64,000 bases of DNA from a bacterium (lineage in GTDB: Bacteria > Patescibacteriota > Saccharimonadia > CAILAD01 > GCA-016700035), in NCBI GenBank assembly GCA_016700035.1, contig CP064998.1:590790-654789 (forward strand). The letters run 5' to 3'. Shown one piece after another: positions 1 to 64,000 of the stretch (its first letter is position 1; each line of letters opens with the position of its first letter). The translations under genes and the position numbers were made by a program. The notes under the pieces are model-generated. The model had not been told where the DNA came from. It saw only the letters and a list, made by a program, of their open reading frames with translations, and searched no databases.

Positions 1-29
1 AGTATGTCACGAAGAGTACCAGCAAAGCT

Positions 30-476
30 CTATAGGGTTTTACTAAAACTTGAAGAAAAACATACGACGCGCGGGTGTAGCTCAGCTGATAGAGCGCTTC
101 CTTGCCAAGGAAGAGGCCCCGGGTTTGAGTCCCGGTACCCGCACCAAAGATTTGATTCAGAGCCGTTTGGGCTCTTTTTCTTTGCCTCAATAATTGTCTT
201 AAAGGGGTCGTTGAGCATATAAGACAACTTCTTGTCCTTTAATTCAATGTTTGAAAGCAGATATTCAAGAAGTTTCTGACGAAGGCCATCGTCACTCTCT
301 TTGAATAGTTCATCAGCACGCTGTGCTAGGTCCAACAGATAAGAAGCAGTGACCTGGAACAGCTTATTATCATTCGTTAGCAACTTAAGGCGATCATTTA
401 ATTCTTGCTGTCGATTCTCTAATTCAGTTGCAATTTCGTCATGGAAAGCCTGAGTAATGCACCCCAGAACAAACAA
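30..476 (-). CDS. Hypothetical protein / gene remnant. Only roughly 230-476 is plausibly coding; the ORF reads through the tRNA-Gly gene.
   Basis: ORF track. The N-terminal 80 aa are coiled-coil-like (ELENRQQELNDRLKLL). The C-terminal part overlaps the tRNA antisense and is spurious. Confidence 0.3.
   Translation of the reverse strand: MFVLGCITQAFHDEIATELENRQQELNDRLKLLTNDNKLFQVTASYLLDLAQRADELFKESDDGLRQKLLEYLLSNIELKDKKLSYMLNDPFKTIIEAKKKSPNGSESNLWCGYRDSNPGPLPWQGSALSAELHPRVVCFSSSFSKTL
71..146 (+). tRNA. tRNA-Gly (anticodon GCC), CCA encoded
   Basis: Cloverleaf parsed by eye: acceptor GCGGGTG/CACCCGC, anticodon stem CTTCC/GGAAG, loop TTGCCAA, T-loop TTTGAGT, 3' ACCA. Confidence 0.85.
158..181 (+). 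terminator. Rho-independent terminator after tRNA-Gly
   Basis: Hairpin cagagcc...ggctct followed by a T-run. Confidence 0.6.
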
Positions 477-577
477 TGATTAATATCACTATAGTCAGCC
501 TAGCTTTGGTATTATTAACTCATGAAGAGAATACTACCTGTCGCGCTGCACTACCTTAGTAGGGCGAAGACCTATTT

Positions 578-2470: not shown

Positions 2471-2488
2471 TCAGGAGGAGCTATAGCT

Positions 2489-3277
2489 ATGTTGTTAATT
2501 GCAATGCTTCTCGGTTTTGTTGAGGGAGCAACTGAATTCTTACCAATTTCCTCTACAGGCCACTTGATACTCGCTGGCTGGCTTGTAGGATACCAAGGAG
2601 ATAAGGCGGCCAGCTTTGAGATTTTCATTCAGCTGGGTGCTATCTTGGCGGTGGTCTGGGTATTTCGACACAAGTTCTTCAAGCTCATTACCGCTAGAGA
2701 TACAACTCAGTTTGCTGGAAGACGAGGCTTATATTTACTAGCAATCACAACTACCCCAGCTCTATTCTTTGGTTTTCTTTTTCACGGACCCATAAAGCAA
2801 TACCTCTTCAACCCCGCTACAGTAGCAATAGGGCTTATTCTAGGCGGCATCGGCATACTATTTATCGAGAAGAGACCCCAGAATAAAACTATGCAAAGTC
2901 TTAACAATCTATCTAGAAAACAGGCGTTGGGTGTGGGTTTCGCTCAGGTACTTGCTCTTTTCCCTGGTGTGTCGCGGTCAGGATCGACGATCATGGGAGG
3001 AATGCTGTTTGGCATCAACCGAGAAACGGCTGTAGAGTACTCATTCCTAGCAGCCGTTCCAGTAATGTTTGCCGCCACTGGGTACGACTTGCTCAAAACA
3101 CTACCAAATCTTACTAGTTCAGATATTCCATTCTTTGCCATAGGACTTATATCTGCTTTCGTGAGTGCCCTAATCGCCATCAAGTGGCTACTTAAATATG
3201 TCCAACAACATACCTTCGCCCCATTTGCCTGGTACCGCATCGTATTAGGGCTGATAGTCCTAGCTCTATTCCGATGA
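2489..3277 (+). CDS. uppP: Undecaprenyl-diphosphate phosphatase (UppP/BacA)
   Basis: N-terminal GATEFLPISSTGHLIL signature, polytopic membrane protein, 262 aa. Confidence 0.9.
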   Translation: MLLIAMLLGFVEGATEFLPISSTGHLILAGWLVGYQGDKAASFEIFIQLGAILAVVWVFRHKFFKLITARDTTQFAGRRGLYLLAITTTPALFFGFLFHGPIKQYLFNPATVAIGLILGGIGILFIEKRPQNKTMQSLNNLSRKQALGVGFAQVLALFPGVSRSGSTIMGGMLFGINRETAVEYSFLAAVPVMFAATGYDLLKTLPNLTSSDIPFFAIGLISAFVSALIAIKWLLKYVQQHTFAPFAWYRIVLGLIVLALFR

Positions 3278-3298
3278 GTAGGAATACCCTATAATAAG

Positions 3299-4138
3299 GT
3301 GATGAATGAAGCTCAGCCAGAGACAAGCAACAACACTTCTCGACGCAAGTTTCTCTTTATCATTCTAGCTATTATCGTTTTGGTTATTTTGATACCGCTC
3401 ATGGCTGCTGGTATTGTCTATGCTTCTTCACCTCAGACTATTCGTAACCCCAAACTTGAGCATTACCATTTCCGTATGCAGATTGTGGTAGATGGCCAAA
3501 AAGAAGATTTCTCAGAGGACAAATACCAGCAGGACTACGCAAAGGACCAATGTAACGCAAATCTTCCAGAGCAACCGATCCACTTTCATGATAAGAAAGA
3601 TCAGTTCACGCATATTCACTGGGAAGGCATGACTGGAGGTATGGTTCTTAAGTATTATGGCTGGAACTATATTGGTGGTCTTAATAATGCTCTCGGCTAC
3701 AAGCTAAATGACCTCAAAGACATACAAAAAGTGAATACTCACGGCAACTTCTTACCAGCTCGCCCAGCAGGCTCAAAGCTATATGTCTTCACTGGCAACG
3801 AAAAGGAGTTTAAGGAGCGAAACCCTGATGATTTTGTGAAGCAAGACTTAGAGCAGTTTTTTGGTGTGACTAGTAACGCTCCATCTCATGAGATAAACAA
3901 ACAAAACAATGTCAGCATCTTGAATAAGTTCTTGCCACGGGCTTCCGCCCATGGTGGTGCTGACGACGGGGCAGACGGCGAGCCAGGCGAGGAACCCGCA
4001 GAAGAAAAGCTCACGCGCATAAATAATTTAATCGGTAACGTCGTAATTTTTGCCCAAAAAGATCGACCAACCAATGAACAGATTAAGGATAAGTTTAGTA
4101 ATCTAGAGCCATTAACAGCAAGTACCTGTGGTGGCTAA
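3299..4138 (+). CDS. Hypothetical membrane-anchored protein
   Basis: ORF with an N-terminal TM helix and an acidic C-terminal tail. No family recognised. Confidence 0.5.
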   Translation: MMNEAQPETSNNTSRRKFLFIILAIIVLVILIPLMAAGIVYASSPQTIRNPKLEHYHFRMQIVVDGQKEDFSEDKYQQDYAKDQCNANLPEQPIHFHDKKDQFTHIHWEGMTGGMVLKYYGWNYIGGLNNALGYKLNDLKDIQKVNTHGNFLPARPAGSKLYVFTGNEKEFKERNPDDFVKQDLEQFFGVTSNAPSHEINKQNNVSILNKFLPRASAHGGADDGADGEPGEEPAEEKLTRINNLIGNVVIFAQKDRPTNEQIKDKFSNLEPLTASTCGG

Positions 4139-4458
4139 TGCGTCCCAGGTTTAAATTTTTCACATTCTTACTTGTATCTATCCTTTGCGTGCTCTTCTCT
4201 CTGGGTATAATCTCAGCGAGTCAAGTCGAGTGGAACTCATCCCATGTAGAATGCACTGCATCATGCCACTCGACGAACCCAGCTACAACTGCTGCGAAAA
4301 TCATAGATCAACAGATCCAGAAGAAGAAAGCCCCTGTCGCAGCTTGGCTGCATATTCCAAGTAATCTATTTTTTCTTTATGTCTCACCTGTAGTTTTATT
4401 CATCTGGTTCATGGACAGATCTAAGACACTGTCTCTTACGGCACGCTTTAGGTTTTGA
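4138..4458 (+). CDS. Hypothetical small membrane protein
   Basis: ORF overlapping the previous stop (ATGA). N-terminal TM plus a C-terminal hydrophobic segment. Confidence 0.4.
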   Translation: MRPRFKFFTFLLVSILCVLFSLGIISASQVEWNSSHVECTASCHSTNPATTAAKIIDQQIQKKKAPVAAWLHIPSNLFFLYVSPVVLFIWFMDRSKTLSLTARFRF

Positions 4459-4510
4459 AATACACTTCTATATTTAGTGTCATTTTAAATCTAAGCTAAG
4501 GAACAAATAC

Positions 4511-5155
4511 ATGAGTAAGTGGATATTTGGAGTAGTCATTTTGGCTATTATTGGGTTTTCTACATATGCCCTGACAAGAAGCGATGAGCAGTTAGCCGCT
4601 ACAGAGAACATTTCAAGTGAAGGTTCTAAGAATTACTACGGCAATCTTGATAGCCCAGTGACACTCACGGAGTTTGTGGACTTCCAGTGTGAAGCCTGTT
4701 ATGCCTACTACCCGCACGTTAAAGAAATAAAAGAAAAGTACAAAGATCGCGTTAAATTTCAGATAAAAAACATGCCGATCTCTTCATCTCACAAGTCCGC
4801 TGCTCAGGCTGCTTACTCAGCCGAAGCTGCTGCACGCCAGGATAAATTCTTCGAAATGCATAATAAGCTATTCGAAGAGCAGAAGACTTGGGAGCAAGCG
4901 AAAGACCCTACTTCACTCTTTGAGAAATATGCCCAAGCTATTGGCCTGAATATGGAGAAGTTCAAGTCTGACGTAAAAAGTGCCGAGGTAGAGGCCGTGA
5001 TCAAGAAAGACCTTGCAGATGCGACCGCGCTCAAGGCTAGCGGCACGCCTACCTTTGTGCTGAACGGTCAGATGATAGAAAACCCTGGCCCATCGGTAGA
5101 AGCGCTTTCTAAGGTCCTGGACGATGCTTTAGCGAGCAGTAACACCCAACAATAA
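4511..5155 (+). CDS. DsbA-family thiol:disulfide oxidoreductase, membrane-anchored
   Basis: CxxC motif (FQCEACYAYYP) in a thioredoxin-fold context, plus an N-terminal TM. Confidence 0.75.
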   Translation: MSKWIFGVVILAIIGFSTYALTRSDEQLAATENISSEGSKNYYGNLDSPVTLTEFVDFQCEACYAYYPHVKEIKEKYKDRVKFQIKNMPISSSHKSAAQAAYSAEAAARQDKFFEMHNKLFEEQKTWEQAKDPTSLFEKYAQAIGLNMEKFKSDVKSAEVEAVIKKDLADATALKASGTPTFVLNGQMIENPGPSVEALSKVLDDALASSNTQQ

Positions 5156-5419
5156 GGTTAGCGTACTGGATGCCTAGCTAGCAGTTGAAAAAGCTGGGCA
5201 TCCTATTCCTAGCTAGGTGCTATTAATTCGCCAGATAAATCAAAGGTTTCAGCAAGGTGCTTTAGTCTATGATCTTCATGCGCCCCTATTGCGGCTGTTT
5301 GCAATGCGTCAACGATCCTGCACCACAGTATAGATTAAATGGTGCTTGAAGCGGTATAGCTTCAAATATTAAAGTCTCATTGAAGTTATTTTTGATATAA
5401 TGACGAAAAAGGAGTACGG

Positions 5420-5770
5420 ATGGTCACACCTGAACAGGTACACAACTACGCCAGGCAAAAATTTAATGAAGAAGATCCAAGCGACAGAATAGAAGACGCA
5501 GGTTTTGCATACTATATTAATACTCAACCAAGAGAGTACCTAGATACAGAAGATATTCATAAAATGATGATTGGCAACGGGCCACTTGTCGTAATCAAAG
5601 AAACAGGTGATGTATATTCATTTTCTTCAAATCCAGCCCATATGTTTGGCGACCCAGAAACAAGAATCGGGGTTAATACTGCAAGAACCACCGAAGAATT
5701 CCATACAGCGTTATCTGCCTTAATAGATAAAGGTGCCACTTCAGCCAATCCGATTGACCACATTAACTAG
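5420..5770 (+). CDS. Hypothetical protein
   Basis: ORF preceded by the RBS aaaggag. Confidence 0.45.
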   Translation: MVTPEQVHNYARQKFNEEDPSDRIEDAGFAYYINTQPREYLDTEDIHKMMIGNGPLVVIKETGDVYSFSSNPAHMFGDPETRIGVNTARTTEEFHTALSALIDKGATSANPIDHIN

Positions 5771-6003
5771 ATTAAGTCAGACAATAATTTGAAAATTGTC
5801 ACAAGATTTTCTAGCCTTGCGTTCTAGCAGTTTTTAATAGCTACCGTTTGAACTGTGTCAACTATCTTGAACCAAACTCTATAGCTACAGGTAAAGAATA
5901 AACCATATAATTAAAAGTAACTTTGGACAACTTAAGCGGCTGTCTTTTATATGAAGTAGTTTATCAAAACCAAAGATAAGGGGCACTCGCGCCCATGCGC
6001 TTA

Positions 6004-6882
6004 CTAGCCTGCCTCCAGCTCTAACTGCTCCGACAACGAAGCGGTGGCATCAAGGTCATCAAGAATCTCCAATATCTCTGGATCTTGAGCATAACGACCA
6101 CCGCTGGCATGCTTAGCGATTTCTCGCAACGTACTCATCGCCACAATATGCGATAGTCCGCTCCTGCGACACAGTGCATCATAAATATCTAGAATATTAA
6201 TAAGTTTTTCGGCTCGATCATAAGCACTATTTTCACCAAAATTATATTTCTGATTATAAACATCGCTACCTTCATCAAAAATACCGTCCGGATTATCGTC
6301 GCGCATACGATGATGTGATACTGCCCCAGCAATTGGCTCTCTTGGTATGCCAGCAGCATTAATAAGCAACTTTAACGTCCATTCTGTGTGAAGATCATAA
6401 AACTCTCTCAAGCTAATTGCGCAATCGATCCCCAGGCTATCAAACACTGCCTTAAAAGATTCTGCCCGTTGTGGAAAATACACCATAAAAAAACTGTTTA
6501 AGCTATCCATTAAAACTTCGGTGGGAAGATTTTCAAGTGCATAAATATCAACAAACAACTGAGCTTGCTCCATAGATGCTTCAGGCGGGCCAGTTTTACC
6601 AATATCCGTAAGTAGAGTACCAACCCTAACAATATGCTTCTCGTCCGATGAATAGGCATGGCCACGCCGCTCAGCAACCCGAAAAACATCATCAGCCCGA
6701 CGAATAGCTGATATTTCGTCGGTAACAGTTTCGGTTTGATCAGCTAGTAATACTAGTCGGTCTCTTATTTGGCTATCGAGATCACTTGGAGCAATATCCA
6801 CCTCGCGTAATATACCTTCAATCAACGCGACGGGGTTTTTTTGATTATATTCTAATTGTACTTCCTGGCTCAAAACTCGCAC
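6004..6882 (-). CDS. HD-GYP-like domain protein with degenerate catalytic motifs (TD instead of HD; NPDG instead of GYP)
   Basis: LLTDIGKTGPPE aligns to the HDIGKIGIPD consensus. SHHRMRDDNPDGIF aligns to HHERxDGSGYPxGL. DIYDALCRRSG aligns to DVxDALTSxRPY. Confidence 0.55.
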   Translation of the reverse strand: MRVLSQEVQLEYNQKNPVALIEGILREVDIAPSDLDSQIRDRLVLLADQTETVTDEISAIRRADDVFRVAERRGHAYSSDEKHIVRVGTLLTDIGKTGPPEASMEQAQLFVDIYALENLPTEVLMDSLNSFFMVYFPQRAESFKAVFDSLGIDCAISLREFYDLHTEWTLKLLINAAGIPREPIAGAVSHHRMRDDNPDGIFDEGSDVYNQKYNFGENSAYDRAEKLINILDIYDALCRRSGLSHIVAMSTLREIAKHASGGRYAQDPEILEILDDLDATASLSEQLELEAG

Positions 6883-7018
6883 CTCAAGGTATTGCTATAA
6901 TACATATTTTACCATTTTTTATAGACTAACTAATTGACTTCAAGGGCATTAAACTACGCAGTAATACATATTAGCTAGCCGTAAGATAAGAGAAATCTCA
7001 GTTAATACTACTTAACTA

Positions 7019-8215
7019 CTACCACCAAGATGTGTCTTTACTAACAGGTGGCGTGGGCGTAGATGTGGATGTAGGCGTATTTACACCACCACCAGATGGA
7101 GATGGAGTAGAAGTGCTCGTGCCACCATTAGTGCTACCGCCACTCGATGACACTGGTATATATGACGCAACTCCACTCTCTCCTGCTGATGTCGGGGCAA
7201 GCGAAGTTAAACCAGAACCGTCGAGATTAATACGATGCAATACTTGCTTAAACCAAACTGACTTTAGAAATACAATACTTGTAGAATCAGCCGAAAATGT
7301 GCCATTGGCATTCCCGCCACCATCAGCAATAACAGCAGTTGGATTCAGTGGGCCAGCTACAGAGCCCCGCATCATGTCACACGGACAACCATATATATTG
7401 CGAAAACTGAGCCACAGGTAGGTTTTTCCATCCGGTGATATATAAGGGTCGTAGTTCCAGCCTGGATCATTAGTGATACGCACTTCCTCTCGAGTCGCAT
7501 AGTCGATCTTAAACACATCTTGCTTCTGGCAAAGTCCAAAACATTCCCAGCCACGAATTAGCATAATTTGATTAGTTGTCGACCAAGATGGGTCGGACAC
7601 TACCGAATCAGATCCTTCAACCTTCATTTCTTTTGATATAACTTCTGGTGAGTTACCATTACTATCAATCACTACCACACGAGATTTAAATTCTGGTATC
7701 GTAGCCACCAAGACCATCTTGCTCGAATCCGGAGACCATTCGGCATGAGCCATACCTGTCCAGTTATAACTATCTCGCTTGGCTAAACTGATTATTTCCT
7801 GCTGATTACTGCCGTCTGTATTCATCACCCAAAGTCGATTACTATGGGTAGCAAAATTGACGCTCGAATCCTTACTAGCCTTCATAAATAATATTTTCTT
7901 GCCATCAGGACTAGGTCGAGCCCATTCATGCTGAGCAGAGGGATCATTCGTTAAGCGAACTTTATTACCACCATTTTTATCCATTTTCCAAATTTGGTTT
8001 GTTTCAGAGCCTTCTTTACTAGCAAAAAGGATGTGAGAATCGGTAGTGGCTACGGGTGTCGTACTGGTGGGCTTAGATGCAAATGATGCATATATAACGA
8101 CCGACAACACCACAGCAAACAGGCCGACAACCAACGGTGCTGGTGGGAGCTTAAATTTACGGTTTAGCAGTGCTGATGAGGTGGTTGCTTTTTTAGCCAT
8201 TTTTTTATTAGACAC
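7019..8215 (-). CDS. TolB-like beta-propeller (PD40 repeat) protein, N-terminally anchored, with a G/S/T/P-rich C-terminal tail
   Basis: Repeated WSPDG/PSPDGKKILF motifs, signal-anchor, low-complexity tail. Confidence 0.65.
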   Translation of the reverse strand: MSNKKMAKKATTSSALLNRKFKLPPAPLVVGLFAVVLSVVIYASFASKPTSTTPVATTDSHILFASKEGSETNQIWKMDKNGGNKVRLTNDPSAQHEWARPSPDGKKILFMKASKDSSVNFATHSNRLWVMNTDGSNQQEIISLAKRDSYNWTGMAHAEWSPDSSKMVLVATIPEFKSRVVVIDSNGNSPEVISKEMKVEGSDSVVSDPSWSTTNQIMLIRGWECFGLCQKQDVFKIDYATREEVRITNDPGWNYDPYISPDGKTYLWLSFRNIYGCPCDMMRGSVAGPLNPTAVIADGGGNANGTFSADSTSIVFLKSVWFKQVLHRINLDGSGLTSLAPTSAGESGVASYIPVSSSGGSTNGGTSTSTPSPSGGGVNTPTSTSTPTPPVSKDTSWW

Positions 8216-8347: not shown

Positions 8348-9328
8348 ATGAAACAAAGAAATGCAATTTCCCGCATCAAAAAGGGTCGTAAATTTATTTA
8401 TATAACTAAAAATGGCTTGGTACAAAACAAAAAAATGCTTACTTATATTGCTAGCCTCTCCATCCCTCCAGCCTGGGATATGGTAACTATTGCTGGCTCC
8501 CCCAACGCCAAAGTACTCGTCACTGGCCAAGATATGGCTGGTCGCACCCAATGCATATATAACCCTAAGTTTCGAGCTCGCCAAGATAAACTCAAATTTG
8601 ACCGTATCTTGCGGTTTGCCGATGCCCTACCCAACCTGCGTCGTCAAATCAGTAAAGATCTGTCTCGCAAACGCCTAGTAAAAGAGAAAGTCTTAGCCTG
8701 TGTGGTGCGCTTAATTGATGAGGCCTATTTTCGGGTGGGTAACGAAAAATATGCTAAAGAAAATCAAAGCTACGGCATTACCACTATGCGGTCTAAGCAC
8801 ACTGACGTTCAGGGCACTACTGTAACCTTCGACTTTATTGGTAAAAGTGGCAAACAGCACATTAAAAGTATTACCGACCGACAAATTGCCAACATTGTAA
8901 AACAGCTTGATGAGTTACCTGGATATGAGGTGTTTCGCTACATTGATGCTGACGGTAAATTGCACGATGTGGAGAGCACGGATGTAAATAATTACATAAA
9001 AACCCATATGGGAGAGGAGTTTAGCGCCAAAGACTTTCGCACCTGGGGCGGTACGCTTCTGGCTACCAGTGAACTTTTAGCTGTTGAGCGAATGCGTCAT
9101 CACGCCGAACGACAAAAGCAAGTGGTAGAAGTGGTGCGCAGTGTGGCCGAACGGCTGGGTAACACCCCGGCAGTAGCGCGCTCCAGCTACATTGACCCTC
9201 GCGTCCTCAATGCCTACACCGAATCCACACGACTAGAAAAAATCAAAGTTGCCATGGAGAAGATGCGCCCTCGCAAGTACATGAGTCGCGACGAACAGTG
9301 TGTATTAAGACTTCTAGAAACCGCATAA
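8348..9328 (+). CDS. DNA topoisomerase IB (bacterial/poxvirus type)
   Basis: IPPAW, GRxQxxYxxKFR, FRTWGG and the C-terminal RSSYIDP catalytic Tyr motif. About 326 aa, typical of bacterial TopIB. Confidence 0.85.
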   Translation: MKQRNAISRIKKGRKFIYITKNGLVQNKKMLTYIASLSIPPAWDMVTIAGSPNAKVLVTGQDMAGRTQCIYNPKFRARQDKLKFDRILRFADALPNLRRQISKDLSRKRLVKEKVLACVVRLIDEAYFRVGNEKYAKENQSYGITTMRSKHTDVQGTTVTFDFIGKSGKQHIKSITDRQIANIVKQLDELPGYEVFRYIDADGKLHDVESTDVNNYIKTHMGEEFSAKDFRTWGGTLLATSELLAVERMRHHAERQKQVVEVVRSVAERLGNTPAVARSSYIDPRVLNAYTESTRLEKIKVAMEKMRPRKYMSRDEQCVLRLLETA

Positions 9329-9521
9329 ACTTTAGTAATTTTCCGTATCGCATAATCTGTTGTAATACTATAAATGTATTGCTTTTTTATAGCTTTTATG
9401 CTATAATATTACCCATCACCTTGTAGGAGGTAGCTATCTGGACCTGATCTGATTATCGGATCCTGGTTAGCTGCCTTCAACCGAGGGCTAGCGTTTCGAC
9501 GACAGCCCTGGAGGGTGGAAA

Positions 9522-10565
9522 ATGAACCTGAATATCAAGGTGTTTATGACCCCGATCGTTGCCATCATCATGATGGCGGTGGCCGCGTGCAGTTGCACCG
9601 CGCCACCCGACGGTGGCGGAGCCACGACAACCTCGTCGACTACCACCAGCTCGACCAGTACAACTCTGCCCGAGCCGACCAGCTGGGAGTTCTCCCTGCG
9701 TGTCGGGATGCCGGCTGACCTTGTCGCCAAGTATGGCGGTGAGACCGCAGCTAAAGCCAAGGTTGAGCAACAACTGGCCAATGCCAATGTGCGCTTCACG
9801 AGTTTCGCCAAGCCGATCGTCTGGCGCATGAACGAGTTCTTCGTCTTTACCGGCGGAGCACTTGATCAGCTGGCGGTGCCACACCCAAACAGCGATTACC
9901 AGCTGCTGTACTCGGAAAACACCACACTCGATGACGGTGGCTGGAAGCCCCAGTCGAAGTCCATCGTGATTCGCTGGACTCCAGCTAGTGGTGGCGTGTT
10001 CGGTCCTTACGGAGCTGACTCACTCATCCACGAGCTGGGCCACGCCCGTGGCGCCATCGATATGTACGGCCTGAACGTGACCGGGGCCAACAACCCCGTC
10101 AATGGCCAGGGCTACACGCCGGCTGGTGGGTTCATGACCTACCCCTACGGTGCCACCGCTTGGGATGATTACTCGACGAGAGTCATCAATGCGTCGGCCG
10201 ACATGGTCTACAACGATGATCGTATCGTCCGGCAGTCCATCCCGGTCGTACAGGTGCACGCCACCAAGAATGGTGTGCCCGTGACTGGCGCCACGGTGGA
10301 GTTGTTCGGTTCTAGCTGGTACTCCGGCTCCGTCAACAGCTTTGCCAGCCAGACTGGAACGACCACAAACGGTAACTGGTTCGCTCCAGCCAACCCGTTT
10401 GAGGCCAACCCAGCAGCCTTCTGGAAGCTCAGCTTCCCGCTACTGCTGGTATGCGTCACCAGTGGAGCTTCGGTCGGCTACGGCTGGCTGGCTCTGCCGG
10501 ACGCCGGCAGCTGGTTCTTCACTCACCCGAGTGAAGCCTACCAGCTCAACGTCAACCTTGCCTGA
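9522..10565 (+). CDS. Secreted zinc metallopeptidase lipoprotein (HExxH), carried on a GC-rich (about 60%) insert
   Basis: Signal peptide plus lipobox (VAAC), HELGHA motif, and codon/GC composition sharply different from flanking DNA. Confidence 0.7.
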   Translation: MNLNIKVFMTPIVAIIMMAVAACSCTAPPDGGGATTTSSTTTSSTSTTLPEPTSWEFSLRVGMPADLVAKYGGETAAKAKVEQQLANANVRFTSFAKPIVWRMNEFFVFTGGALDQLAVPHPNSDYQLLYSENTTLDDGGWKPQSKSIVIRWTPASGGVFGPYGADSLIHELGHARGAIDMYGLNVTGANNPVNGQGYTPAGGFMTYPYGATAWDDYSTRVINASADMVYNDDRIVRQSIPVVQVHATKNGVPVTGATVELFGSSWYSGSVNSFASQTGTTTNGNWFAPANPFEANPAAFWKLSFPLLLVCVTSGASVGYGWLALPDAGSWFFTHPSEAYQLNVNLA

Positions 10566-10583
10566 TTACCAAATCAATCAGGC

Positions 10584-10614
10584 AGCCCCCGACTTCGGTC
10601 GGGGGTATTTTTAT
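10584..10614 (+). terminator. Rho-independent terminator
   Basis: cccccgac-ttcg-gtcggggg followed by T-run. Confidence 0.75.
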
Positions 10615-10665
10615 TGCTTAAACAATTGAAAAATGCTATATTAGTGCAGTTCATAAAATCTTTTC

Positions 10666-10739
10666 GGGTGATTAGCTCAGTTGGCTAGAGCATCTCGTTT
10701 ACACCGAGAGGGTCGGGGGTTCGAGTCCCTCATCACCCA
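10666..10739 (+). tRNA. tRNA-Val (anticodon TAC), no encoded CCA
   Basis: Acceptor GGGTGAT/ATCACCC, anticodon loop TTTACAC, T-loop TTCGAGT. Confidence 0.85.
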
Positions 10740-10741
10740 CA

Positions 10742-10772
10742 AGAAAAACCTCGCAGCTGCGAGGTTTTTCTT
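10742..10772 (+). terminator. Rho-independent terminator after tRNA-Val
   Basis: aaaaacctcgcagctgcgaggttttt hairpin with T-run. Confidence 0.75.
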
Positions 10773-10806
10773 GTGTTTAAACTTTCTACTATATTTAAAA
10801 TCTTTA

Positions 10807-11184
10807 CTAAGATGCCGGGATGTCCATGTCTGCTTCTGGCGTATTACGCGCCCGAATTTCTGCAATCTTACGCTCTATTTCCTCGGGACCAGCTGATACC
10901 ACTCCACTTGCTCCGCCTAATTCCTGTAGGGCTTGAGCTCGCAACTGAGCTTCTTCAGTCTCCACTATATCCCGTTGAGCGCGCTGATCGGCCAGCTGAC
11001 TTACCATCTCTTGATGTTCAGCGGAATTATCCAAAACATCTGCCCCCTCACTAATTGGCGTCTCAACCGTATCTGTTTTACCAGACAGCATACTCCTTAG
11101 CTTATCTACCAATCCTGTATTTTCATTAGCATGTACTGGTTTTTCCTGAGGCCCCTCGGAACCCTGTGGTGTTTTTGGTGGCAT
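10807..11184 (-). CDS. Hypothetical acidic protein
   Basis: ORF with RBS gaaggagagtg upstream of the ATG. Confidence 0.5.
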   Translation of the reverse strand: MPPKTPQGSEGPQEKPVHANENTGLVDKLRSMLSGKTDTVETPISEGADVLDNSAEHQEMVSQLADQRAQRDIVETEEAQLRAQALQELGGASGVVSAGPEEIERKIAEIRARNTPEADMDIPAS

Positions 11185-11238
11185 ATCACTCTCCTTTTCT
11201 TCGAGAATAGTGTATCATATATCCGTCCCCTTGTATTC

Positions 11239-11323
11239 GGGCGAGTGGTGGAATTGGTATACACGACGGACTTAAAATCCGTTGCCGCAAGGCTTGAGGG
11301 TTCGAGTCCCTCCTCGCCCACCA
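11239..11323 (+). tRNA. tRNA-Leu (anticodon TAA), long variable arm, CCA encoded
   Basis: Acceptor GGGCGAG/CTCGCCC, anticodon stem ACGGA/TCCGT, loop CTTAAAA, T-loop TTCGAGT. Confidence 0.85.
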
Positions 11324-11332
11324 GATAGACTA

Positions 11333-11358
11333 CCTTCTCCAGTGGGGAGAAGGTTTTT
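11333..11358 (+). terminator. Rho-independent terminator after tRNA-Leu(TAA)
   Basis: ccttctcc-agtgg-ggagaagg followed by ttttt. Confidence 0.75.
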
Positions 11359-11429
11359 GTATAATTAATCAAATCTGTATTTATAAAAAATAGCCCCGAA
11401 CAATAGTTCAAGGCTTGGTGTATCCTATA

Positions 11430-11723
11430 TCAGCTGACCGATACAGAATGTGTTTGAGGCGAAGAGAGTGCATTGAGCAGGCTGTCGATAGTATCTCGAC
11501 ACTCTGGACAGCACTGCCGACTGGCGGTCCAGATAGCTGACAGTTGCCCCACCAGACGCGCCTCCAATCCTTCAGTCTTGTCTTCAAGAGCAACGATCTG
11601 GCGCTGGGTGCGCCGTAGCTGATGAGTCAGTTGCTCCCTACTTGAAGGTATCGCGATGCGTGTTTTTTCCAGTTCAACGCTCACTTGTTTCTCCTGATAT
11701 CTGTTGTTGGCGAATAGGTACAA
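11430..11723 (-). CDS. Hypothetical protein (coiled-coil plus a CCPEC motif), GC-elevated
   Basis: ORF track. Local GC is visibly higher than surroundings. No RBS identified, so the call is weak. Confidence 0.3.
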   Translation of the reverse strand: MYLFANNRYQEKQVSVELEKTRIAIPSSREQLTHQLRRTQRQIVALEDKTEGLEARLVGQLSAIWTASRQCCPECRDTIDSLLNALSSPQTHSVSVS

Positions 11724-11778
11724 GGACTATCCAGCATAACAAAAATTACTCTGCCTTTCAAGAGTAAGGTCTGATGCA

Positions 11779-12444
11779 TTGCGTTTTTCACTCCATTGCT
11801 CTAGACTAAACATAAGTTTTTTAGAAAATCCCATGTCACGTAAGCACATTAATCTCTCCATTACCGACGCTCTAAGCTATGGCTGGAAAGCTACCAGTAA
11901 ATATCTTGGCTTTTATTTTACGCTGGCCTTAATCATCCTGCTTTTTAATCTGATACCGTCAATTTTTACAGTATTTTTTGACAATAGTATCTATACCCCA
12001 GTCATTCGCGGAATATTTATTGTTCTGATGGCCCTTATAACACTTGGCATGGTGCGCACAACACTGCAACAAGTTGATAAAAAAGACACCAACCTAGCCG
12101 ACCTTTTTCGCCTCAATCTTTTTGGTCGTTATCTGGTAGTGGCACTAATTTACCTTTTCTTAGTTATTGGTGGGCTTATCTTATTTATTGTTCCCGGAGT
12201 ATATTAGGGGCTCAAATATCAGTTTGCAACCTATCTAGTGGTTGATAAAAAGCTTAGTATCGGTAAGTCATTTGAAGAATCTGCCAAGCTAGTAGAAGGC
12301 TATGAATGGGATCTCTTAAGCTATTGGCTAATTATGATCTTGCTAAATATTGTAGGTATTTTATTCTTTGTGGTCGGAATTGTTATTACCCTGCCGGTTA
12401 CAGTTGCAGGATACACCTACCTTTACCGAGAACTTCGTAAATAA
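11779..12444 (+). pseudogene. DUF975-like polytopic membrane protein interrupted by an in-frame TAG at 12208-12210. The two ORFs, 11779..12207 and 12238..12444, share one frame.
   Basis: Both ORFs are in frame 1. Reading through gives ...LFIVPGVY*GLKYQFATYLVVDKK..., contiguous with the PGII..L.YS.a.Y.l.D motif region of DUF975 proteins. Confidence 0.55.
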
Positions 12445-12465
12445 ACATACGTTATTAATGCCAAT

Positions 12466-12490
12466 ATAAAAACCCCTTATCGGGGTTCTT
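12466..12490 (+). terminator. Hairpin terminator, shared with the tRNA-Leu(GAG) 3' flank
   Basis: aaccccttatcggggtt hairpin flanked by A/T runs. Confidence 0.5.
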
Positions 12491-12495
12491 GTATT

Positions 12496-12586
12496 GGTGC
12501 GGACGAGAAGACTCGAACTTCCACGCCTTTAAAAAATAGGCACTAGCCCCTCAAGCTAGCGTGTCTACCAATTCCACCACGTCCGC
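12496..12586 (-). tRNA. tRNA-Leu (anticodon GAG), long variable arm, CCA encoded
   Basis: Reverse complement: GCGGACG..CTAGC-TTGAGGG-GCTAG, variable arm, GGAAG-TTCGAGT-CTTCT, CGTCCGC-A-CCA. Confidence 0.8.
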
Positions 12587-12671
12587 ATAATTATTACTAT
12601 ATCTCATTGAGGTACACATTTTGCTACAGGCTTAAGAGGCCCTGAGTTTTTTATATGGATCTAGACAGGAT

Positions 12672-12712
12672 TACAGACCAAGCTAGCCCGTCTACCAACT
12701 CCATCGCGTTTA
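12672..12712 (-). other. Degenerate partial copy (about 80% identity over about 35 nt) of the 5' half of tRNA-Leu(GAG); pseudo-tRNA fragment
   Basis: ccaagctagcccgtctaccaactccatcgcg versus tcaagctagcgtgtctaccaattccaccacg of the intact tRNA. The fragment has no complementary 3' half. Confidence 0.5.
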
Positions 12713-12764
12713 GCGTATAAAACAGCAAGGCCTATTTTAACAGATTCTTACACTGTTGTCAGTT

Positions 12765-13097
12765 CTAAATTAGGGCTGTATATGAAAGAAAAATAAGCGC
12801 CAACCCCAATGCAATTGCAAGCGGTATAAGAATTAATAGATTGACATAATAATATATCTCTTTTGGCTCATTCCAAGAATTTTTCTGAGCTTTTGGCAAC
12901 TTCTTCCAATCAGCCTTGTAGTTCTGCCAAACATCTTTACTGCGCGCCAAACTCCAAATTCCACCAACAAATAGCAACATACCTAAACCTAATTGACCAA
13001 ACAAACTACCCATATATGTCAAAACCAGAAACCATAAGAATATTACTAGTCCAACAATTCTTCCCCAACTATCTTTGCGCTTAATGTTTCGTGCCAT
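12765..13097 (-). CDS. Hypothetical small membrane protein (3 TM)
   Basis: ORF with RBS aggaggttt and hydrophobic segments. Confidence 0.5.
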   Translation of the reverse strand: MARNIKRKDSWGRIVGLVIFLWFLVLTYMGSLFGQLGLGMLLFVGGIWSLARSKDVWQNYKADWKKLPKAQKNSWNEPKEIYYYVNLLILIPLAIALGLALIFLSYTALI

Positions 13098-13109
13098 TTT
13101 AAAAACCTC

Positions 13110-14816
13110 CTAGTTATCGTAATTATTTGGTAGATGGTCAGCCAGGTGCTTCATAGAATATTCCTTGCGCAATTGACGTGGTAAGTCTTTCAAGCTTACA
13201 CCTATCTTAACGCCCGGATTAAATATGTTAAGTGGATCAAAAACCTTCTTAATATCTTCAAACACACCATAAAGATGCTCACCATACAAGCGCTTGAGAT
13301 ATGGTGCTCGCAAACGACCATCATTGTGCTCGCCACAAGTCGATCCACCCATTTCAATTACCATACGATAAAACTCATTCATTAACTCAAACATTTTCTT
13401 GCGATCCACCTGCGAGCCCAGATTCATGAAAGGCTGCATATGAAAGTTCGCATTACCAGCATGCCCCCAAACCGCAATATCGAGCTTATATTTTTCAAAC
13501 ATTTTATACACCTGCTCTAAGAACTTTGGCATCTGCTCAAGTGGAACGACGCCGTCTTCAATAATCGGTAAAGCTTTCTTAGCGCCACGAAACTTCCAAA
13601 TAATAGCCGCTGCACCACGCCGGATTTTCCATAGTTTAATCTGCTCATTAGGGTCAGTCGCCAAGCGTGAAGCAAAAGCTAACTCTCGAAAAACTTTTTG
13701 AACCTTTTTGGCTTTCGAGGCCTGTGTGCGTGATTTAGTATCATCAAACTGTACCAAAAGTACTATGCCGGGCATCTTCTCAGGCATGATGTCTCGAATT
13801 TGTTCCGGATCATGCTCACACAAAAACTCCAGCAAATGCCGATCCACCACCTCTAAGGCAGAGGGCTTTAATGGCATCACCAGCTCAACCGCCCTAGCAG
13901 CATGCTCCATATCCTCAAAGTAGCCAACCACCAAATGGGTTTGGGGGTTATACGGTACATGACGTAGGCTAACTTCAGTAACCGCGCCCAGTGTACCCTG
14001 ACTCCCCACGATTAACTGACCCAAATCAAAGCTCCCATCCGGACCTTTTACATGCCACAAATCATACCCAGCTGAGTTTTTACTAACCCGCGGATAAGCT
14101 TCAGCTAGCTGGTCCCAATTTTCCTCAATTAAGTAGTCAACATTACGATAAATATGGCCCTCAAAATCTGTCTGCCGCTGTTTTTGCCGAAGCTCTTTTG
14201 CGCTCAATCGGCGCGTCTCAATCACTTGCCCATTAGCCAAAACCACCCGTAAACTTTCTACATAATCACGAGTTGACCCATATTTAATAGTTTTTTCACC
14301 AGCCGAGTTATTAGCTACCGCTCCGCCAATGGTGGCAAAATCAATACTCGCCGGATAGGGTGGCATAAATCTTTTGTGGCTATGTAATAAGTGTTGTAAG
14401 TCCTTATAAATCATGCCAGGCTGAACCGTTATGGTATCTTTTGACATATCAATAAAGTGGTTCATGTGGGCTGGCAAAACCATAATAATGCCACTACCTA
14501 GAGCTGCCCCACCCTGATCAGTACCTTTACCACGCATAGTTATAGGAATTGAGTTACCCTTGGCGGCCTCTTGCGCTACCAAAGTAACCACCTCTGCCAC
14601 ATCGGCCTCATTTTGAGGATAAATAACAATCTGCGGCATAACACGGAACACGCTACCATCGGTTGAGAAGAATTCTCGAGTTGCCTTATTTACACTTACT
14701 TCACCAGTAGTAAAATTACGGAGTCGTTGATAGAAATCAGTCATAGTACTTGTAGCATAACAATTTTCGACACTCTGTGCAAAATCTAATTGTTGAATTT
14801 TGACAGATTGATACAT
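13110..14816 (-). CDS. FAD-linked oxidase (FAD_binding_4 / GlcD-D-lactate dehydrogenase-like)
   Basis: N-terminal FAD-binding domain motifs (RGKGTDQGGAALG, IGGAVANNSAGE) and a C-terminal oxidase domain; 568 aa. Confidence 0.75.
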   Translation of the reverse strand: MYQSVKIQQLDFAQSVENCYATSTMTDFYQRLRNFTTGEVSVNKATREFFSTDGSVFRVMPQIVIYPQNEADVAEVVTLVAQEAAKGNSIPITMRGKGTDQGGAALGSGIIMVLPAHMNHFIDMSKDTITVQPGMIYKDLQHLLHSHKRFMPPYPASIDFATIGGAVANNSAGEKTIKYGSTRDYVESLRVVLANGQVIETRRLSAKELRQKQRQTDFEGHIYRNVDYLIEENWDQLAEAYPRVSKNSAGYDLWHVKGPDGSFDLGQLIVGSQGTLGAVTEVSLRHVPYNPQTHLVVGYFEDMEHAARAVELVMPLKPSALEVVDRHLLEFLCEHDPEQIRDIMPEKMPGIVLLVQFDDTKSRTQASKAKKVQKVFRELAFASRLATDPNEQIKLWKIRRGAAAIIWKFRGAKKALPIIEDGVVPLEQMPKFLEQVYKMFEKYKLDIAVWGHAGNANFHMQPFMNLGSQVDRKKMFELMNEFYRMVIEMGGSTCGEHNDGRLRAPYLKRLYGEHLYGVFEDIKKVFDPLNIFNPGVKIGVSLKDLPRQLRKEYSMKHLADHLPNNYDN

Positions 14817-14857
14817 CTTAAGCTAAGCTTATTATAATAAACTTTTAGTAAAGTATT

Positions 14858-15751
14858 ATGGGAAAAATAAACACCACTAAGACATCGCGTAACAACCACA
14901 ATCTTGGTCGCGTTAAGCAATTCAAACAACCAGCCATGCTGGCTGTTCTGGGGTTGTTTGCGATGGCTGGTAGCATCCTAATTTATGCCTCGCTGGCTAG
15001 CTCCACGCCAGTTGTAAACACTAATGCCGAGTTTTGGCGGGCTCGGATTGCTGGCTGCGAGTCTGGTTCGGGGCCAAATAGCCAGGGTCGTTACACTGCC
15101 TCCAATGGTTCTGGAAATTTTGGCGCCTACCAGTTTGATGTCCGTACTTGGCAAGGAGCTGTGGGACCAGAGTTAGCCACTCAATACCCCAATCCAACTC
15201 AAGCTCCACCAGAAATTCAAGATCAAGCTTTTTATAATACTTTTGCCAGACGCGGCAGTCAGCCCTGGAATGCCAGCTATAAATGCTGGCGTACCGATGA
15301 GTTAGCTGCCCGACCAATCGGTGTAATACCGTTAAGACTACCTAAGCTAGGTAAATCCTCCAACGTAGCCGAAGACCCGATCGTTGGTCCACCTAAATCT
15401 GCCTATAACATCAAGGTGCAAGGGCGTGTCTATGTTGACGGTAAACTTATACCAAATATTAAGCTTATTACCTGCGTTGATGGAGTTACCACCACAACTG
15501 GATCAGGCGGCGTATATAGCTTTGAATTACCAGCCGGAAATAACTATTGTGTACGCGTAATTGAAGGCCTACCGGCCAATGCACGATTAGATAAAACTAA
15601 CAATAACCCAGAGCGAGCCGCCGATACTAGCTACGAACATCAACTGGCTGGCAAGAACTATTACCGAAACCTCTGGCAGTTTTTCACACCCTATTACACC
15701 TGGGATCGAGCCAGCGATGAAAACACCGATTTTTGGTTCGTCACCCATTAG
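14858..15751 (+). CDS. Membrane-anchored Rpf-like transglycosylase-domain protein with a C-terminal Ig-like/CarboxypepD_reg-like domain
   Basis: ARIAGCESGSG...GAYQFDVRTWQ...KCW closely matches the resuscitation-promoting-factor/transglycosylase-like domain. N-terminal TM. Confidence 0.7.
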   Translation: MGKINTTKTSRNNHNLGRVKQFKQPAMLAVLGLFAMAGSILIYASLASSTPVVNTNAEFWRARIAGCESGSGPNSQGRYTASNGSGNFGAYQFDVRTWQGAVGPELATQYPNPTQAPPEIQDQAFYNTFARRGSQPWNASYKCWRTDELAARPIGVIPLRLPKLGKSSNVAEDPIVGPPKSAYNIKVQGRVYVDGKLIPNIKLITCVDGVTTTTGSGGVYSFELPAGNNYCVRVIEGLPANARLDKTNNNPERAADTSYEHQLAGKNYYRNLWQFFTPYYTWDRASDENTDFWFVTH

Positions 15752-15846
15752 ATCTGTTGTTACATATTGACATCATTAATCATATATTGTATTATCTGGA
15801 CACCCGAAATACGGGTGAGTTGAGTTCTTCAAATGAAGGAGTAGTC

Positions 15847-16182
15847 ATGGCTATCGCCCTGCAAACTTCAATTAGCACCACCTCTCGATATGAGCCATTC
15901 GATCTAGCCGGCCTTCGCATTGGCCAAATACTTGAACTACAGTGCGACCATAATATCCGCTGGTATATCAGTATCTTGACCACGTCAACCTGTCGAACTG
16001 AACTCATCAAGGGTGCGATGATCATGACAAACTCACCTAATCGTGGCATCCGTATCGCCTGCTCACCCTACGAGATGACGGTTGGTCGACAAGTGCAAGC
16101 CGGCAACCAACTAGCAATCGGTTACGGCCACACAGAGGTCATTCGATCCTTTCGTGTAGTTGAGCAATCGATCAGTCCATAA
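15847..16182 (+). CDS. Hypothetical protein. Start is at the internal ATG after the AGGAG RBS; the longer ORF begins at 15733.
   Basis: aaggagtagtcATG at 15836-15849. A terminator follows downstream. Confidence 0.45.
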   Translation: MAIALQTSISTTSRYEPFDLAGLRIGQILELQCDHNIRWYISILTTSTCRTELIKGAMIMTNSPNRGIRIACSPYEMTVGRQVQAGNQLAIGYGHTEVIRSFRVVEQSISP

Positions 16183-16210
16183 CCCGCATATAAAGTGCGC
16201 AATAAATTCC

Positions 16211-16245
16211 AGACTCCAGAATACCACCTGGAGTCTTTTTCTTAT
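16211..16245 (+). terminator. Rho-independent terminator
   Basis: agactccag...ctggagtct followed by ttttt. Confidence 0.75.
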
Positions 16246-16338
16246 TTTTGTAGGATAGTATAGTGCCACAACAACTAGTCATCCGCACCAAAGAAAAAAG
16301 AGCGCAAATGCGCTCAAATTTCCCGAAAAGTTCGTTCT

Positions 16339-16425
16339 TGGTGCGGATGAAAGGACTCGAACCTTCACGAGATTGCTCCCACTGACACCTGAAGCCAGCG
16401 TGTCTACCAATTCCACCACATCCGC
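16339..16425 (-). tRNA. tRNA-Leu (anticodon CAG), long variable arm, CCA encoded
   Basis: Reverse complement: GCGGATG..CTGGC-TTCAGGT-GTCAG, variable arm, T-loop TTCGAGT, CATCCGC-A-CCA. Confidence 0.8.
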
Positions 16426-63526: not shown

Positions 63527-64000
63527 CTAACTGCAGCCGCTAGTTGTGCCGCACGTAGTGCAAGCAAAACAACTGCCAGAGCGAATCATCTGTGTGCCGC
63601 AAGCGCCACACATCGGCGCATTTGGATCGCTCTTTCCTATCGGCTCAGGCTCAACGGGGCTAGTGGTTGACTGGTCTACCACCAACCGCTCAGCTCGCTC
63701 GCTCACCGAGAAGATATGCAGGCGCTCAAGAACATCAGCCGACAGAAAATCCAACGCCAACCGCCGGAAGATGTAGTCGAGCAAGCTGTTGGCAATCCGA
63801 ATATCCGGATCGTCAGTCATGCCACGAGGCTCAAATTGCGTGCCGACGTACTTACGCACGTACGACTCCAGCGGTACGCCAGCTTGCAAGCCAAGCGATA
63901 TGGCGATGCCGAAGTTATCCATGAAGCCCGAGAGGGTCGATCCCTGCTTGGTAATATGGAAGAAGATCTCTGCCGGCTGGCCGTTGTCAAACAAGCCAAC
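63527..64000 (-). CDS. nrdJ: Ribonucleotide reductase, B12-dependent class II (NrdJ-like), C-terminal portion. Truncated by the window edge; GC-rich.
   Basis: FEPRGMTDDPDIRIANSLLDYIFRRL and a terminal Cys-rich zinc-ribbon (CGACGTQM...CFACTTCG). GC about 57%. Confidence 0.6.
   Translation of the reverse strand, partial: VGLFDNGQPAEIFFHITKQGSTLSGFMDNFGIAISLGLQAGVPLESYVRKYVGTQFEPRGMTDDPDIRIANSLLDYIFRRLALDFLSADVLERLHIFSVSERAERLVVDQSTTSPVEPEPIGKSDPNAPMCGACGTQMIRSGSCFACTTCGTTSGCS

Follow-up and report, generated by a model that had tools for sequence, protein, structure and literature searches.

A GC-rich gene for a metzincin-like lipoprotein and its structured leader at a conserved locus of Saccharibacteria

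Introduction

Snapalysin, the small neutral protease of Streptomyces (MEROPS family M7), is an actinobacterial metzincin with Asp as the third zinc ligand in the motif HExxHxxGxxD, and it is secreted as a single domain of ~130-170 residues. The leaders of Bacillus subtilis aprE and Escherichia coli ompA form 5' stabiliser stem-loops on mRNAs of a protease and an envelope protein. Here we describe a gene, termed X, that encodes a metzincin-like lipoprotein and carries a structured leader of its own. It is the open reading frame (ORF) at 9522-10565 on the forward strand of a 64,000-nucleotide stretch of the genome of a Saccharimonadia member, an ultra-small epibiont (assembly GCA_016700035.1, contig CP064998.1, positions 590,790 to 654,789), which is referred to as the window. 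Saccharimonadia and Actinomycetota are reported to exchange genes, and the idea of a complementary codon usage between Patescibacteria and their hosts has been discussed (bioRxiv 10.64898/2026.09.16.751625). Our literature searches returned nothing on the X protein, the X leader or the X GC anomaly.

The initial annotation had read X as a protease gene recently acquired from a high-GC donor such as an actinobacterium, which would amount to host-to-symbiont transfer. This reading is partly supported: it was right on the foreign-looking composition, the secreted or anchored zinc protease and the actinobacterial link, and wrong on the timing. As a whole, the data are best explained, with moderate confidence on our part, by an old, vertically inherited surface zinc endopeptidase of Saccharibacteria whose GC content has been kept by selection. 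In the following, L and P numbers denote related contigs and proteins.

X is a GC-rich gene at a conserved position

X lies between topIB and a tRNA-Val gene, and the locus is composed of the following features.

8348-9328, forward strand: topIB, bacterial topoisomerase IB (Pfam Topoisom_I, E 7e-44, plus Top1B_N_bact); GC content at third codon positions (GC3) 0.46
9522-10565, forward strand: coding sequence (CDS) of X, metzincin-like zinc metallopeptidase lipoprotein, 347 aa; GC 0.600, GC3 0.741
10585-10616, forward strand: intrinsic terminator GCCCCCGAC-TTCG-GTCGGGGGT (stem 10585-10606), followed by a T-run
10666-10740, forward strand: tRNA-Val(UAC), first gene of the kept tRNA run

The GC content of X (0.600) contrasts with 0.442 for the rest of the window. 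It exceeds the mean of all 1044-nt windows by 6.1 standard deviations (s.d.), and the top value elsewhere is 0.504. The excess resides mainly at third positions (GC1 0.55, GC2 0.51), and GC3 is 4.5 s.d. above the window mean of 0.408 (s.d. 0.074, 62 long ORFs). In 40-nt steps, GC is 0.28 at 9380-9419, 0.47-0.55 at 9420-9539 and 0.6-0.78 within X, and it is back down to 0.30 at 10600-10639. The GC-rich island noticed at first between topIB and tRNA-Val was therefore recovered, rising at ~9420 and falling at ~10600. The codon preferences of X are the reverse of those of the genome, with ATC at 92% (background 17%), TAC at 92% (25%), TTC at 76% (20%), CTG at 59% (14%) and AAG at 89% (48%). This codon usage resembles that of high-GC bacteria and is actinobacterial-like; the proposed check of GC and codon profiles leaves X a clear outlier.

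The closest homologues of X, with 63-88% identity, are found on related contigs at the same locus, 3' of topIB and 5' of tRNA-Val and tRNA-Leu. These contigs include one of 701 kb, one of 645 kb, and metagenome-assembled genomes (MAGs) from GTDB labelled Candidatus Saccharibacteria. The nearest neighbours, expected in Actinobacteria, are thus in Candidatus Saccharibacteria instead, in close relatives with the same locus and the same anomalous GC, which is the outcome named at the outset as refuting a recent acquisition. X occupies the orthologous site in every related contig recovered (37-88% identity), with the L016 copy at a different locus; the metagenome scan returned 7 loci only. Downstream of X, the tRNA run (10666-16425) contains Val-UAC, Leu-UAA at 11239, Leu-GAG at 12495 and Leu-CAG at 16339. 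In the window, L001, L011 and L012, X is followed by tRNA-Val, tRNA-Leu(UAA), UPF0259, tRNA-Leu(GAG), an FAD-oxidase and a transglycosylase. Most of this downstream run is retained in L014 (43% identity) and L023 (47%). The L008 copy (37% identity) adjoins tRNA-Leu(UAA) and LemA, and the L029 copy (43% identity) is near LemA, HD_4 and topIB. Because the tRNA run 3' of X is kept, the locus is orthologous between the genomes. Moreover, the MNLN/MHLN start of the signal peptide, the promoter and the leader are common to the Saccharibacteria orthologues.

Two genomes alone, L010 and L011, have an extra segment of ~1 kb (L010:4425-5540, L011:8770-9890) that parts topIB from the X promoter. The promoter and leader are intact 3' of this segment, so promoter, leader and CDS behave as one unit.

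Signs of mobility were sought around the gene. Neither an integrase nor a transposase was present among the genes called around X in L001-L005, no direct repeats of at least 12 nt (att-like) were detected in 9200-10850, and plasmid and phage searches with the X protein gave no homologue. The same junctions appear in independent JGI, ENA, Logan and GTDB assemblies, which settles the concern about a chimeric assembly. A high-GC fragment joined to a Saccharibacteria contig during assembly or binning would explain the abrupt GC change and nothing more, and its probability is negligible: the architecture is identical in at least 15 independent contigs from various projects and assemblers, including those of 701 kb and 645 kb, and the conserved leader spans the junction. 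Based on its position and neighbours, we infer that X is a long-standing, vertically inherited gene of the Saccharibacteria clade.

The promoter and structured leader of X

Two elements precede the coding sequence.

9379-9407, forward strand: sigma-70-type promoter, TTGCTT (9379-9384), 17-nt spacer and extended -10 box TGcTATAAT (9399-9407), by direct reading
9414-9521, forward strand: structured 5' leader, ~108 nt, GC 0.54, three-way junction, from folding, with the start placed by the -10 box

The consensus scanner made no call at 9379-9407, where the -35 box matches at 3/6 positions only. The promoter is nearly invariant in 8 orthologous loci, recurs with the same layout in L014, L008, L016, L024, L029 and L030, and is conserved in every Saccharibacteria orthologue examined. 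The AT-rich, native-looking promoter and the terminator before tRNA-Val that had been proposed are both present. The rise in GC at ~9425 is the start of the structured leader, and hence not an insertion junction.

The consensus structure was obtained with RNAalifold on 8 close leaders. In the predicted fold, stem P1 pairs a 5' CACCUU with the Shine-Dalgarno (SD) sequence GGAGGGUG (9510-9517), P2 forms a long hairpin whose base is GGNGGC/GCYGCC, and P3 is a shorter hairpin with AU/UA swaps. The minimum free energy is -51.2 kcal/mol (z -3.99). Promoter and leader are almost invariant in eight lineages of the clade with X at the topIB locus (the topIB clade), with the flanking synonymous sites near saturation.

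Distant leaders have other sequences and the same architecture, with z of -6.0 to -7.0. The SD is again paired in P1 in L024, L008, L029 and L030, and its region is partly paired in L014, in a small local hairpin. The L016 leader is shorter and weaker, and L023 is devoid of the structure. The divergent leaders were folded individually and with RNAalifold on a MAFFT alignment; across 8 of them, P2 is 96.5% paired, with double changes in 8 of its 15 pairs. The covariation score of P2 is 0.49, compared with 0.25 for shuffled alignments (0/500 reach the observed value) and 0.06-0.16 with the pairing partners shifted along. A covariance model of the close clade (R1) is too narrow for the distant leaders (L008, E 0.31), and matches leaders solely upstream of X, except for one weak match in L005 (E 0.017). 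Rfam 15 gave no match in 9412-9521, even at E<=1. The leader is therefore a candidate new cis-regulatory RNA with covariation support.

X would be transcribed from the extended -10 promoter as a monocistronic mRNA, in which the leader junction is predicted to pair the SD. Judging from the fold, the leader probably masks the SD to gate translation, stabilises the mRNA, or does both.

Persistence of the high GC content

Each copy of X in a low-GC context, including that of L016, has a GC content of 0.55-0.64 and a GC3 of 0.62-0.88, with flanks of 0.42-0.51. The upstream neighbour topIB, which has native composition, was used as the neutral-rate control, and its 4-fold-site distance ranges from 0.3 to 2.15 within the topIB clade. 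Further neighbour genes (FAD-oxidase, M48, LemA, UPF0259, SBP5 and transglycosylase; GC3 0.38-0.60) were compared between L001 and L014, L023, L008 or L029. Their 4-fold-site differences (p4) of 0.63-0.77 are to be set beside a saturation level of ~0.73-0.74, and the corrected distances start at 1.4 and reach infinity, a value that stands for an estimate left undefined by saturation of the sites. Under an F81-type decay, in which the GC excess falls as ~exp(-1.35 t) from a start of 0.95 toward 0.39 over 0.7-1.4 substitutions per site and lineage, the 4-fold-site GC of X should be at most ~0.47-0.61, and the observed values are 0.71-0.85.

In addition, three of four pairs show a lower synonymous distance (dS) for X than for topIB (0.25 vs 0.99, 0.93 vs 1.21 and 0.87 vs 2.21). 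The X protein nevertheless evolves 2-3 times faster than topIB, its nonsynonymous distance (dN) being 2-3 times that of topIB despite the lower dS. Since the neighbours are saturated and the dS of X is low, the composition of X appears to be neither a passive remnant nor the fading trace of a recent transfer. Either selection, at synonymous sites or for the mRNA, maintains the high GC3, or X is re-seeded time and again. The anomaly has been retained across saturated lineages, a persistence that simple amelioration theory forbids. In the reduced genome of an epibiont, a GC island beside a tRNA gene need not be a recent arrival from the host. With X, one gene allows a direct test of selection at synonymous sites or for mRNA properties in Patescibacteria.

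Ongoing amelioration was considered as a candidate from parsimony polarisation, which counted 34 GC-to-AT and 4 AT-to-GC changes between the window copy and L001, and was removed by simulation. On the same tree, the parsimony method gives ~75% GC-to-AT changes even at equilibrium; the polarisation is thus uninformative.

High-GC relatives and the origin of X

Three high-GC lineages (P0012/L028, P0013/L027 and L021/L022, hereafter the trio) are 52-56% identical to the window protein. They reside on contigs of 64-70% GC, where the composition of the gene looks native; among 5.8 billion proteins, none of the homologues found in a high-GC context exceeds 56% identity. In neighbour-joining trees, the trio lies inside an otherwise Saccharibacteria clade of positional orthologues, with 94% bootstrap for the enclosing clade and 72% for the grouping of the trio with the topIB clade, apart from L014 and L023. 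The intermediate branches P0015 and P0016 (L029, L030) come from contexts of 46-49% GC and possess the Saccharibacteria promoter and leader. Both elements are absent from the trio, whose N-termini differ. Because the trio nests within the Saccharibacteria clade, the most parsimonious reading is that the closest high-GC homologues probably arose by transfer from Saccharibacteria to an actinobacterium. The small high-GC, probably actinobacterial, group would then be a later export, in which an epibiont gene probably reached an actinobacterial host, and for the closest actinobacterial relatives the direction is likelier symbiont to host than the host-to-symbiont transfer that had been suggested.

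The best matches of a transposase on L027 to plasmids are in Mycobacterium, Gordonia, Mycolicibacterium and Nocardia (66-67% aa identity), and for this reason the L027 contig is probably from Actinomycetota. On this contig (67% GC), P0013 (L027:233-2384) is located directly 3' of the IS3-family transposase pair; it starts at the equivalent of residue ~62 (MPADLV...) and is 5'-truncated. The IS element may have caused the truncation of P0013 or mobilised it.

Deeper outgroups comprise the P0188 group on a 57% GC contig, the P0020 group on a 69% GC contig, the Nakamurella group and Gemmatimonadota, and the named relatives belong to Actinomycetota, Bacteroidota or Gemmatimonadota. As the sampled outgroups are high-GC or from other phyla, it is plausible that the Saccharibacteria ancestor anciently acquired the gene from a high-GC donor. 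The X family would have entered that ancestor long ago, and its GC-rich codons may since have been retained by selection on synonymous sites or mRNA. The link to high-GC bacteria drawn at the outset stands in so far as high-GC relatives exist, including Nakamurella flava and the contigs of 64-70% GC, and fails for the closest ones, which nest inside Saccharibacteria. On a contig of 57% GC, a relative of X with 43% identity has an AT-rich promoter in the style of that of X, TTGACT-17-TAgTATTAT, and only a short leader (L018:3824-3975).

A recent horizontal acquisition from a high-GC actinobacterial host donor, with a composition not yet ameliorated, would agree with the actinobacterial-like codons, the sharp GC borders beside a tRNA gene, the high-GC homologues at 52-56% identity and the gene exchange reported between Saccharimonadia and Actinomycetota (bioRxiv 10.64898/2026.09.16.751625). 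We consider it very improbable, because the same locus, promoter and leader occur in many diverged Saccharibacteria with saturated flanking synonymous sites, and because the search of 5.8 billion proteins gave no high-GC-context homologue above 56% identity. Moreover, the searches for an integrase, att-like repeats and plasmid or phage matches were all negative, and the 5' GC border is the leader.

A second alternative is recurrent re-seeding, in which high-GC alleles, drawn from hosts or other epibionts, replace X in place again and again, so that it never ameliorates. In its favour are the dS of X, which in three of four pairs is lower than the dS of topIB, the interleaving of high-GC homologues with Saccharibacteria in the tree, and the copy beside an IS3 element. 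The high-GC copies, however, have different N-termini and are without the Saccharibacteria promoter and leader, so that each replacement would have had to be exact to the CDS and independent of flanking homology. Furthermore, the X tree broadly tracks the similarity of the neighbour genes, with one small high-GC group inside the clade. We therefore judge re-seeding unlikely.

Several points weigh against long-term vertical inheritance with selected GC and a later export. At first sight the count of 34 vs 4 changes does so, and it is largely an artefact of the method. A 2-state non-stationary likelihood model (6 taxa, 153 sites) had a flat, multimodal surface on which equilibrium GC values of 0.4-0.85 were all acceptable, and it was dropped. 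GC3 is lower in L023 (0.68) and L024 (0.62), and some decay thus occurs. The taxonomy of the high-GC contigs hangs on one transposase, and the trees are neighbour-joining only, with 25% bootstrap for monophyly of the trio and 37% for the exact group of trio plus topIB clade.

A more speculative combination would join the host-like codon dialect and the SD-masking leader into a host-dependent expression switch, with the gene also exported to Actinomycetota; we rate it as quite improbable. If true, efficient translation would require host-derived factors on attachment, for example tRNAs, a metabolite or a factor that binds or unwinds RNA. Alternatively, within this same combination, the GC-rich body and the 5' junction would provide a long-lived mRNA in a minimal-transcription cell. 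Such a switch would be the mirror image of the complementary codon usage idea (bioRxiv 10.64898/2026.09.16.751625).

The X protein and its family

The X protein is composed of a lipoprotein signal peptide, a linker and two folded domains. The numbering below refers to two alignments, A1 with 21 sequences and A2 with 22 more distant relatives.

9522-9590, forward strand: signal peptide MNLNIKVFMTPIVAIIMMAVAA followed by C23 of the lipobox (VAAC), from a manual PROSITE PS51257-type check
9597-9683, forward strand: Thr/Ser/Pro-rich low-complexity linker, residues ~26-54 (A1)
9684-10226, forward strand: catalytic domain with metzincin/adamalysin-like fold, residues ~55-235 (AlphaFold2, Foldseek)
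10029-10061, forward strand: zinc-binding motif HELGHARGAID (HExxHxxGxxD), residues 170-180 (A1, A2)
10134-10136, forward strand: Met205 in FMTYPYG, candidate Met-turn, from conservation in A1 and A2
10248-10559, forward strand: C-terminal beta-sandwich domain, residues ~243-346 (AlphaFold2, all-beta; Foldseek)

The lipobox agrees with the PS51257-type rule in the manual check, with K6, uncharged residues 13-18 and AV-A-A-C. The Cys two residues past Cys23, C25, is at least 90% conserved in A1. The HELGH sequence comprises residues 170-174 (nt 10029-10043). Within the core motif HELGHARGAIDxY, the residues H170, E171, G173, H174, R176, G177 and D180 are invariant in A1, and the H, E, H and D of the zinc motif are invariant in A2 too. 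At Met205, conservation reaches at least 90% in A1 and is complete in A2; this residue is the candidate for the Met-turn. The VAAC lipobox and the HELGH motif noticed earlier are both found in the sequence.

The AlphaFold2 model of X has two domains and a mean predicted local distance difference test (pLDDT) score of 84, with values above 90 over most of the catalytic domain and below 50 at residues 1-45. Against the PDB, Foldseek matched the catalytic domain with snake-venom metalloproteinases, ADAM and ADAMTS (E 4e-5 to 1e-4, Foldseek probability 1.0), at target-normalised template modelling (TM) scores of 0.53-0.59 and sequence identities of 11-18%. The beta-sandwich matches 3e8v with a target-normalised TM score of 0.78, and relatives have weak matches to CarboxypepD_reg and DUF6795. 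At the sequence level, the X protein has no match in Pfam, even at E<=1, none in NCBIfam and no significant one among PDB sequences; the best PDB profile match is ecarin, which is not significant (E 1.3). The ratio dN/dS between X and its orthologues is 0.13-0.27. By this measure, X is under purifying selection and functional.

A profile search of 1.84 billion cluster representatives retrieved 584 relatives at E<=1e-3, each representing a cluster at 50% identity, and 161 at E<=1e-30. Named members come from Nakamurella flava and Spirosoma, and one is in a Gemmatimonadota MAG. Sorting tails of the type IX secretion system (T9SS) are present in 7 of 9 multidomain relatives scanned, and the tails mark these seven as extracellular; several carry CBM60 or Ig-like domains. 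Based on these sequences, the X-type domain is a widespread, uncharacterised, extracellular metzincin-like module. This defines a metzincin-like extracellular protease family, covered by no Pfam model, that occurs on the Saccharibacteria surface and in T9SS-secreted proteins with Bacteroidota-type sorting domains.

According to these features, the X protein would be lipid-anchored via Cys23, with the Thr/Ser-rich linker keeping it off the membrane. The metzincin-type catalytic domain, marked by HExxHxxGxxD and the candidate Met-turn and followed by the beta-sandwich, is predicted to act as a protease. Its likely role would be extracellular proteolysis at the interface between epibiont and host or peptide scavenging, and the X family is a candidate effector at this interface.

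Other GC-rich genes and neighbouring regions

L005 contains a diversity-generating retroelement (DGR) at 4947-7713, ~2-5 kb upstream of topIB and X. It comprises a reverse transcriptase (4947-6008, reverse strand), bAvd (6124-6327, forward strand) and a 118-nt template repeat (6374-6491), which is 86% identical to a variable repeat (6890-7007) at the 3' end of a GC-rich (~0.60) gene of 276 aa (6883-7713, reverse strand). The leader of this DGR target (L005:7707-7796, reverse strand) gave the weak R1 match (E 0.017); it has a similar GAGAGCGGC...GCCGUUCUC hairpin, which lies after a TTGACA/TAAAT promoter. This leader hints at a possible class of GC-rich genes with leaders of this type in the genomes studied. 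A further GC-rich stretch (0.57-0.61) is found at L011:5124-6730, with ORFs of 230 and 258 aa. From its signal peptide, Thr-rich linker, C-terminal LAYTG, hydrophobic stretch and basic tail, the 258-aa product looks like a sortase-anchored surface protein.

The DGR target in L005 and the LAYTG gene in L011, as further GC-rich surface or variable genes, also bear on a third alternative, that X is native and owes its GC to a neutral local process: as a fast-evolving gene for a surface protein, it would lie at a recombination hotspot and have been enriched by GC-biased gene conversion. The 2-3 times faster evolution of the X protein relative to its neighbours, and its being a surface protein, would suit this mechanism. 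In contrast, biased conversion alone would seem insufficient for a GC3 rise of +0.3 to +0.47 that stops exactly at the limits of a single transcription unit, and most members of the family outside Saccharibacteria come from high-GC genomes, which a foreign origin fits better. We regard biased conversion as a rather improbable explanation, and continue to favour an old import retained by selection.

The tRNA run at 10666-16425 is interleaved with small genes, and most or all of it is retained in L001, L010-L012 and L014. It includes tRNA-Leu(CAG), the reader of CTG, which is the Leu codon favoured by X (59% of its Leu codons). A second compositional outlier of the window is the ORF at 63527-63994 (reverse strand), with a TSCPD domain (Pfam E 1.3e-10), GC 0.556 and GC3 0.66; it is a few bases from the window end, and the gene may extend past it. 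Between the two closest genomes (window 1-7000 and L001:1-7400), the region 5' of the PD40/topIB block is rearranged. The window side encodes a P-type ATPase, BacA and a DsbA-like thioredoxin, and the L001 side contains ligA, M48, LemA, tRNA-Cys/Phe/Gly and an MmeI-type restriction-modification gene.

Comparison with known systems

The X locus resembles acquired islands next to tRNA genes in its atypical GC and codons, its sharp borders and its tRNA neighbour. It differs from them in being a single gene, in lacking an integrase and flanking repeats, in occupying the orthologous site in the relatives sampled, and in having escaped amelioration despite the saturated divergence of its flanks.

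The X leader is similar to SD-sequestering leaders, such as riboswitch platforms and RNA thermometers, in that the ribosome-binding site is paired with an upstream anti-SD. With aprE and ompA it shares a stable stem near the 5' end of the mRNA. X-type leaders, at -50 to -70 kcal/mol, are far stabler than typical thermometers. Their architecture, a three-way junction with a GGCGGC/GCCGCC-based hairpin, is family-specific, bar the weak L005 match (E 0.017).

In snapalysin and the X protein, the motif HExxHxxGxxD likewise provides Asp as the third zinc ligand. X differs from snapalysin by its ~180-residue domain with an added beta-sandwich of 100 residues, and the M7 model does not match it. The Pfam models for Reprolysin, Peptidase_M10, Astacin, M7 and other metzincins had no match to X at E<=1, and the top Foldseek matches of X are M12B, not M7. 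Within the metzincin clan MA(M), the nearest fold is that of the adamalysins/reprolysins, ADAM and ADAMTS (M12B), with which X shares the motif HExxHxxGxx(H/D), a downstream conserved Met and the catalytic-domain fold matched by Foldseek. The third ligand is Asp180 in X and His in M12B; the disintegrin and Cys-rich domains and the conserved disulfides of M12B are missing from X, which adds a C-terminal beta-sandwich and a lipoprotein anchor. The X protein represents a new family within a known clan, the metzincins.

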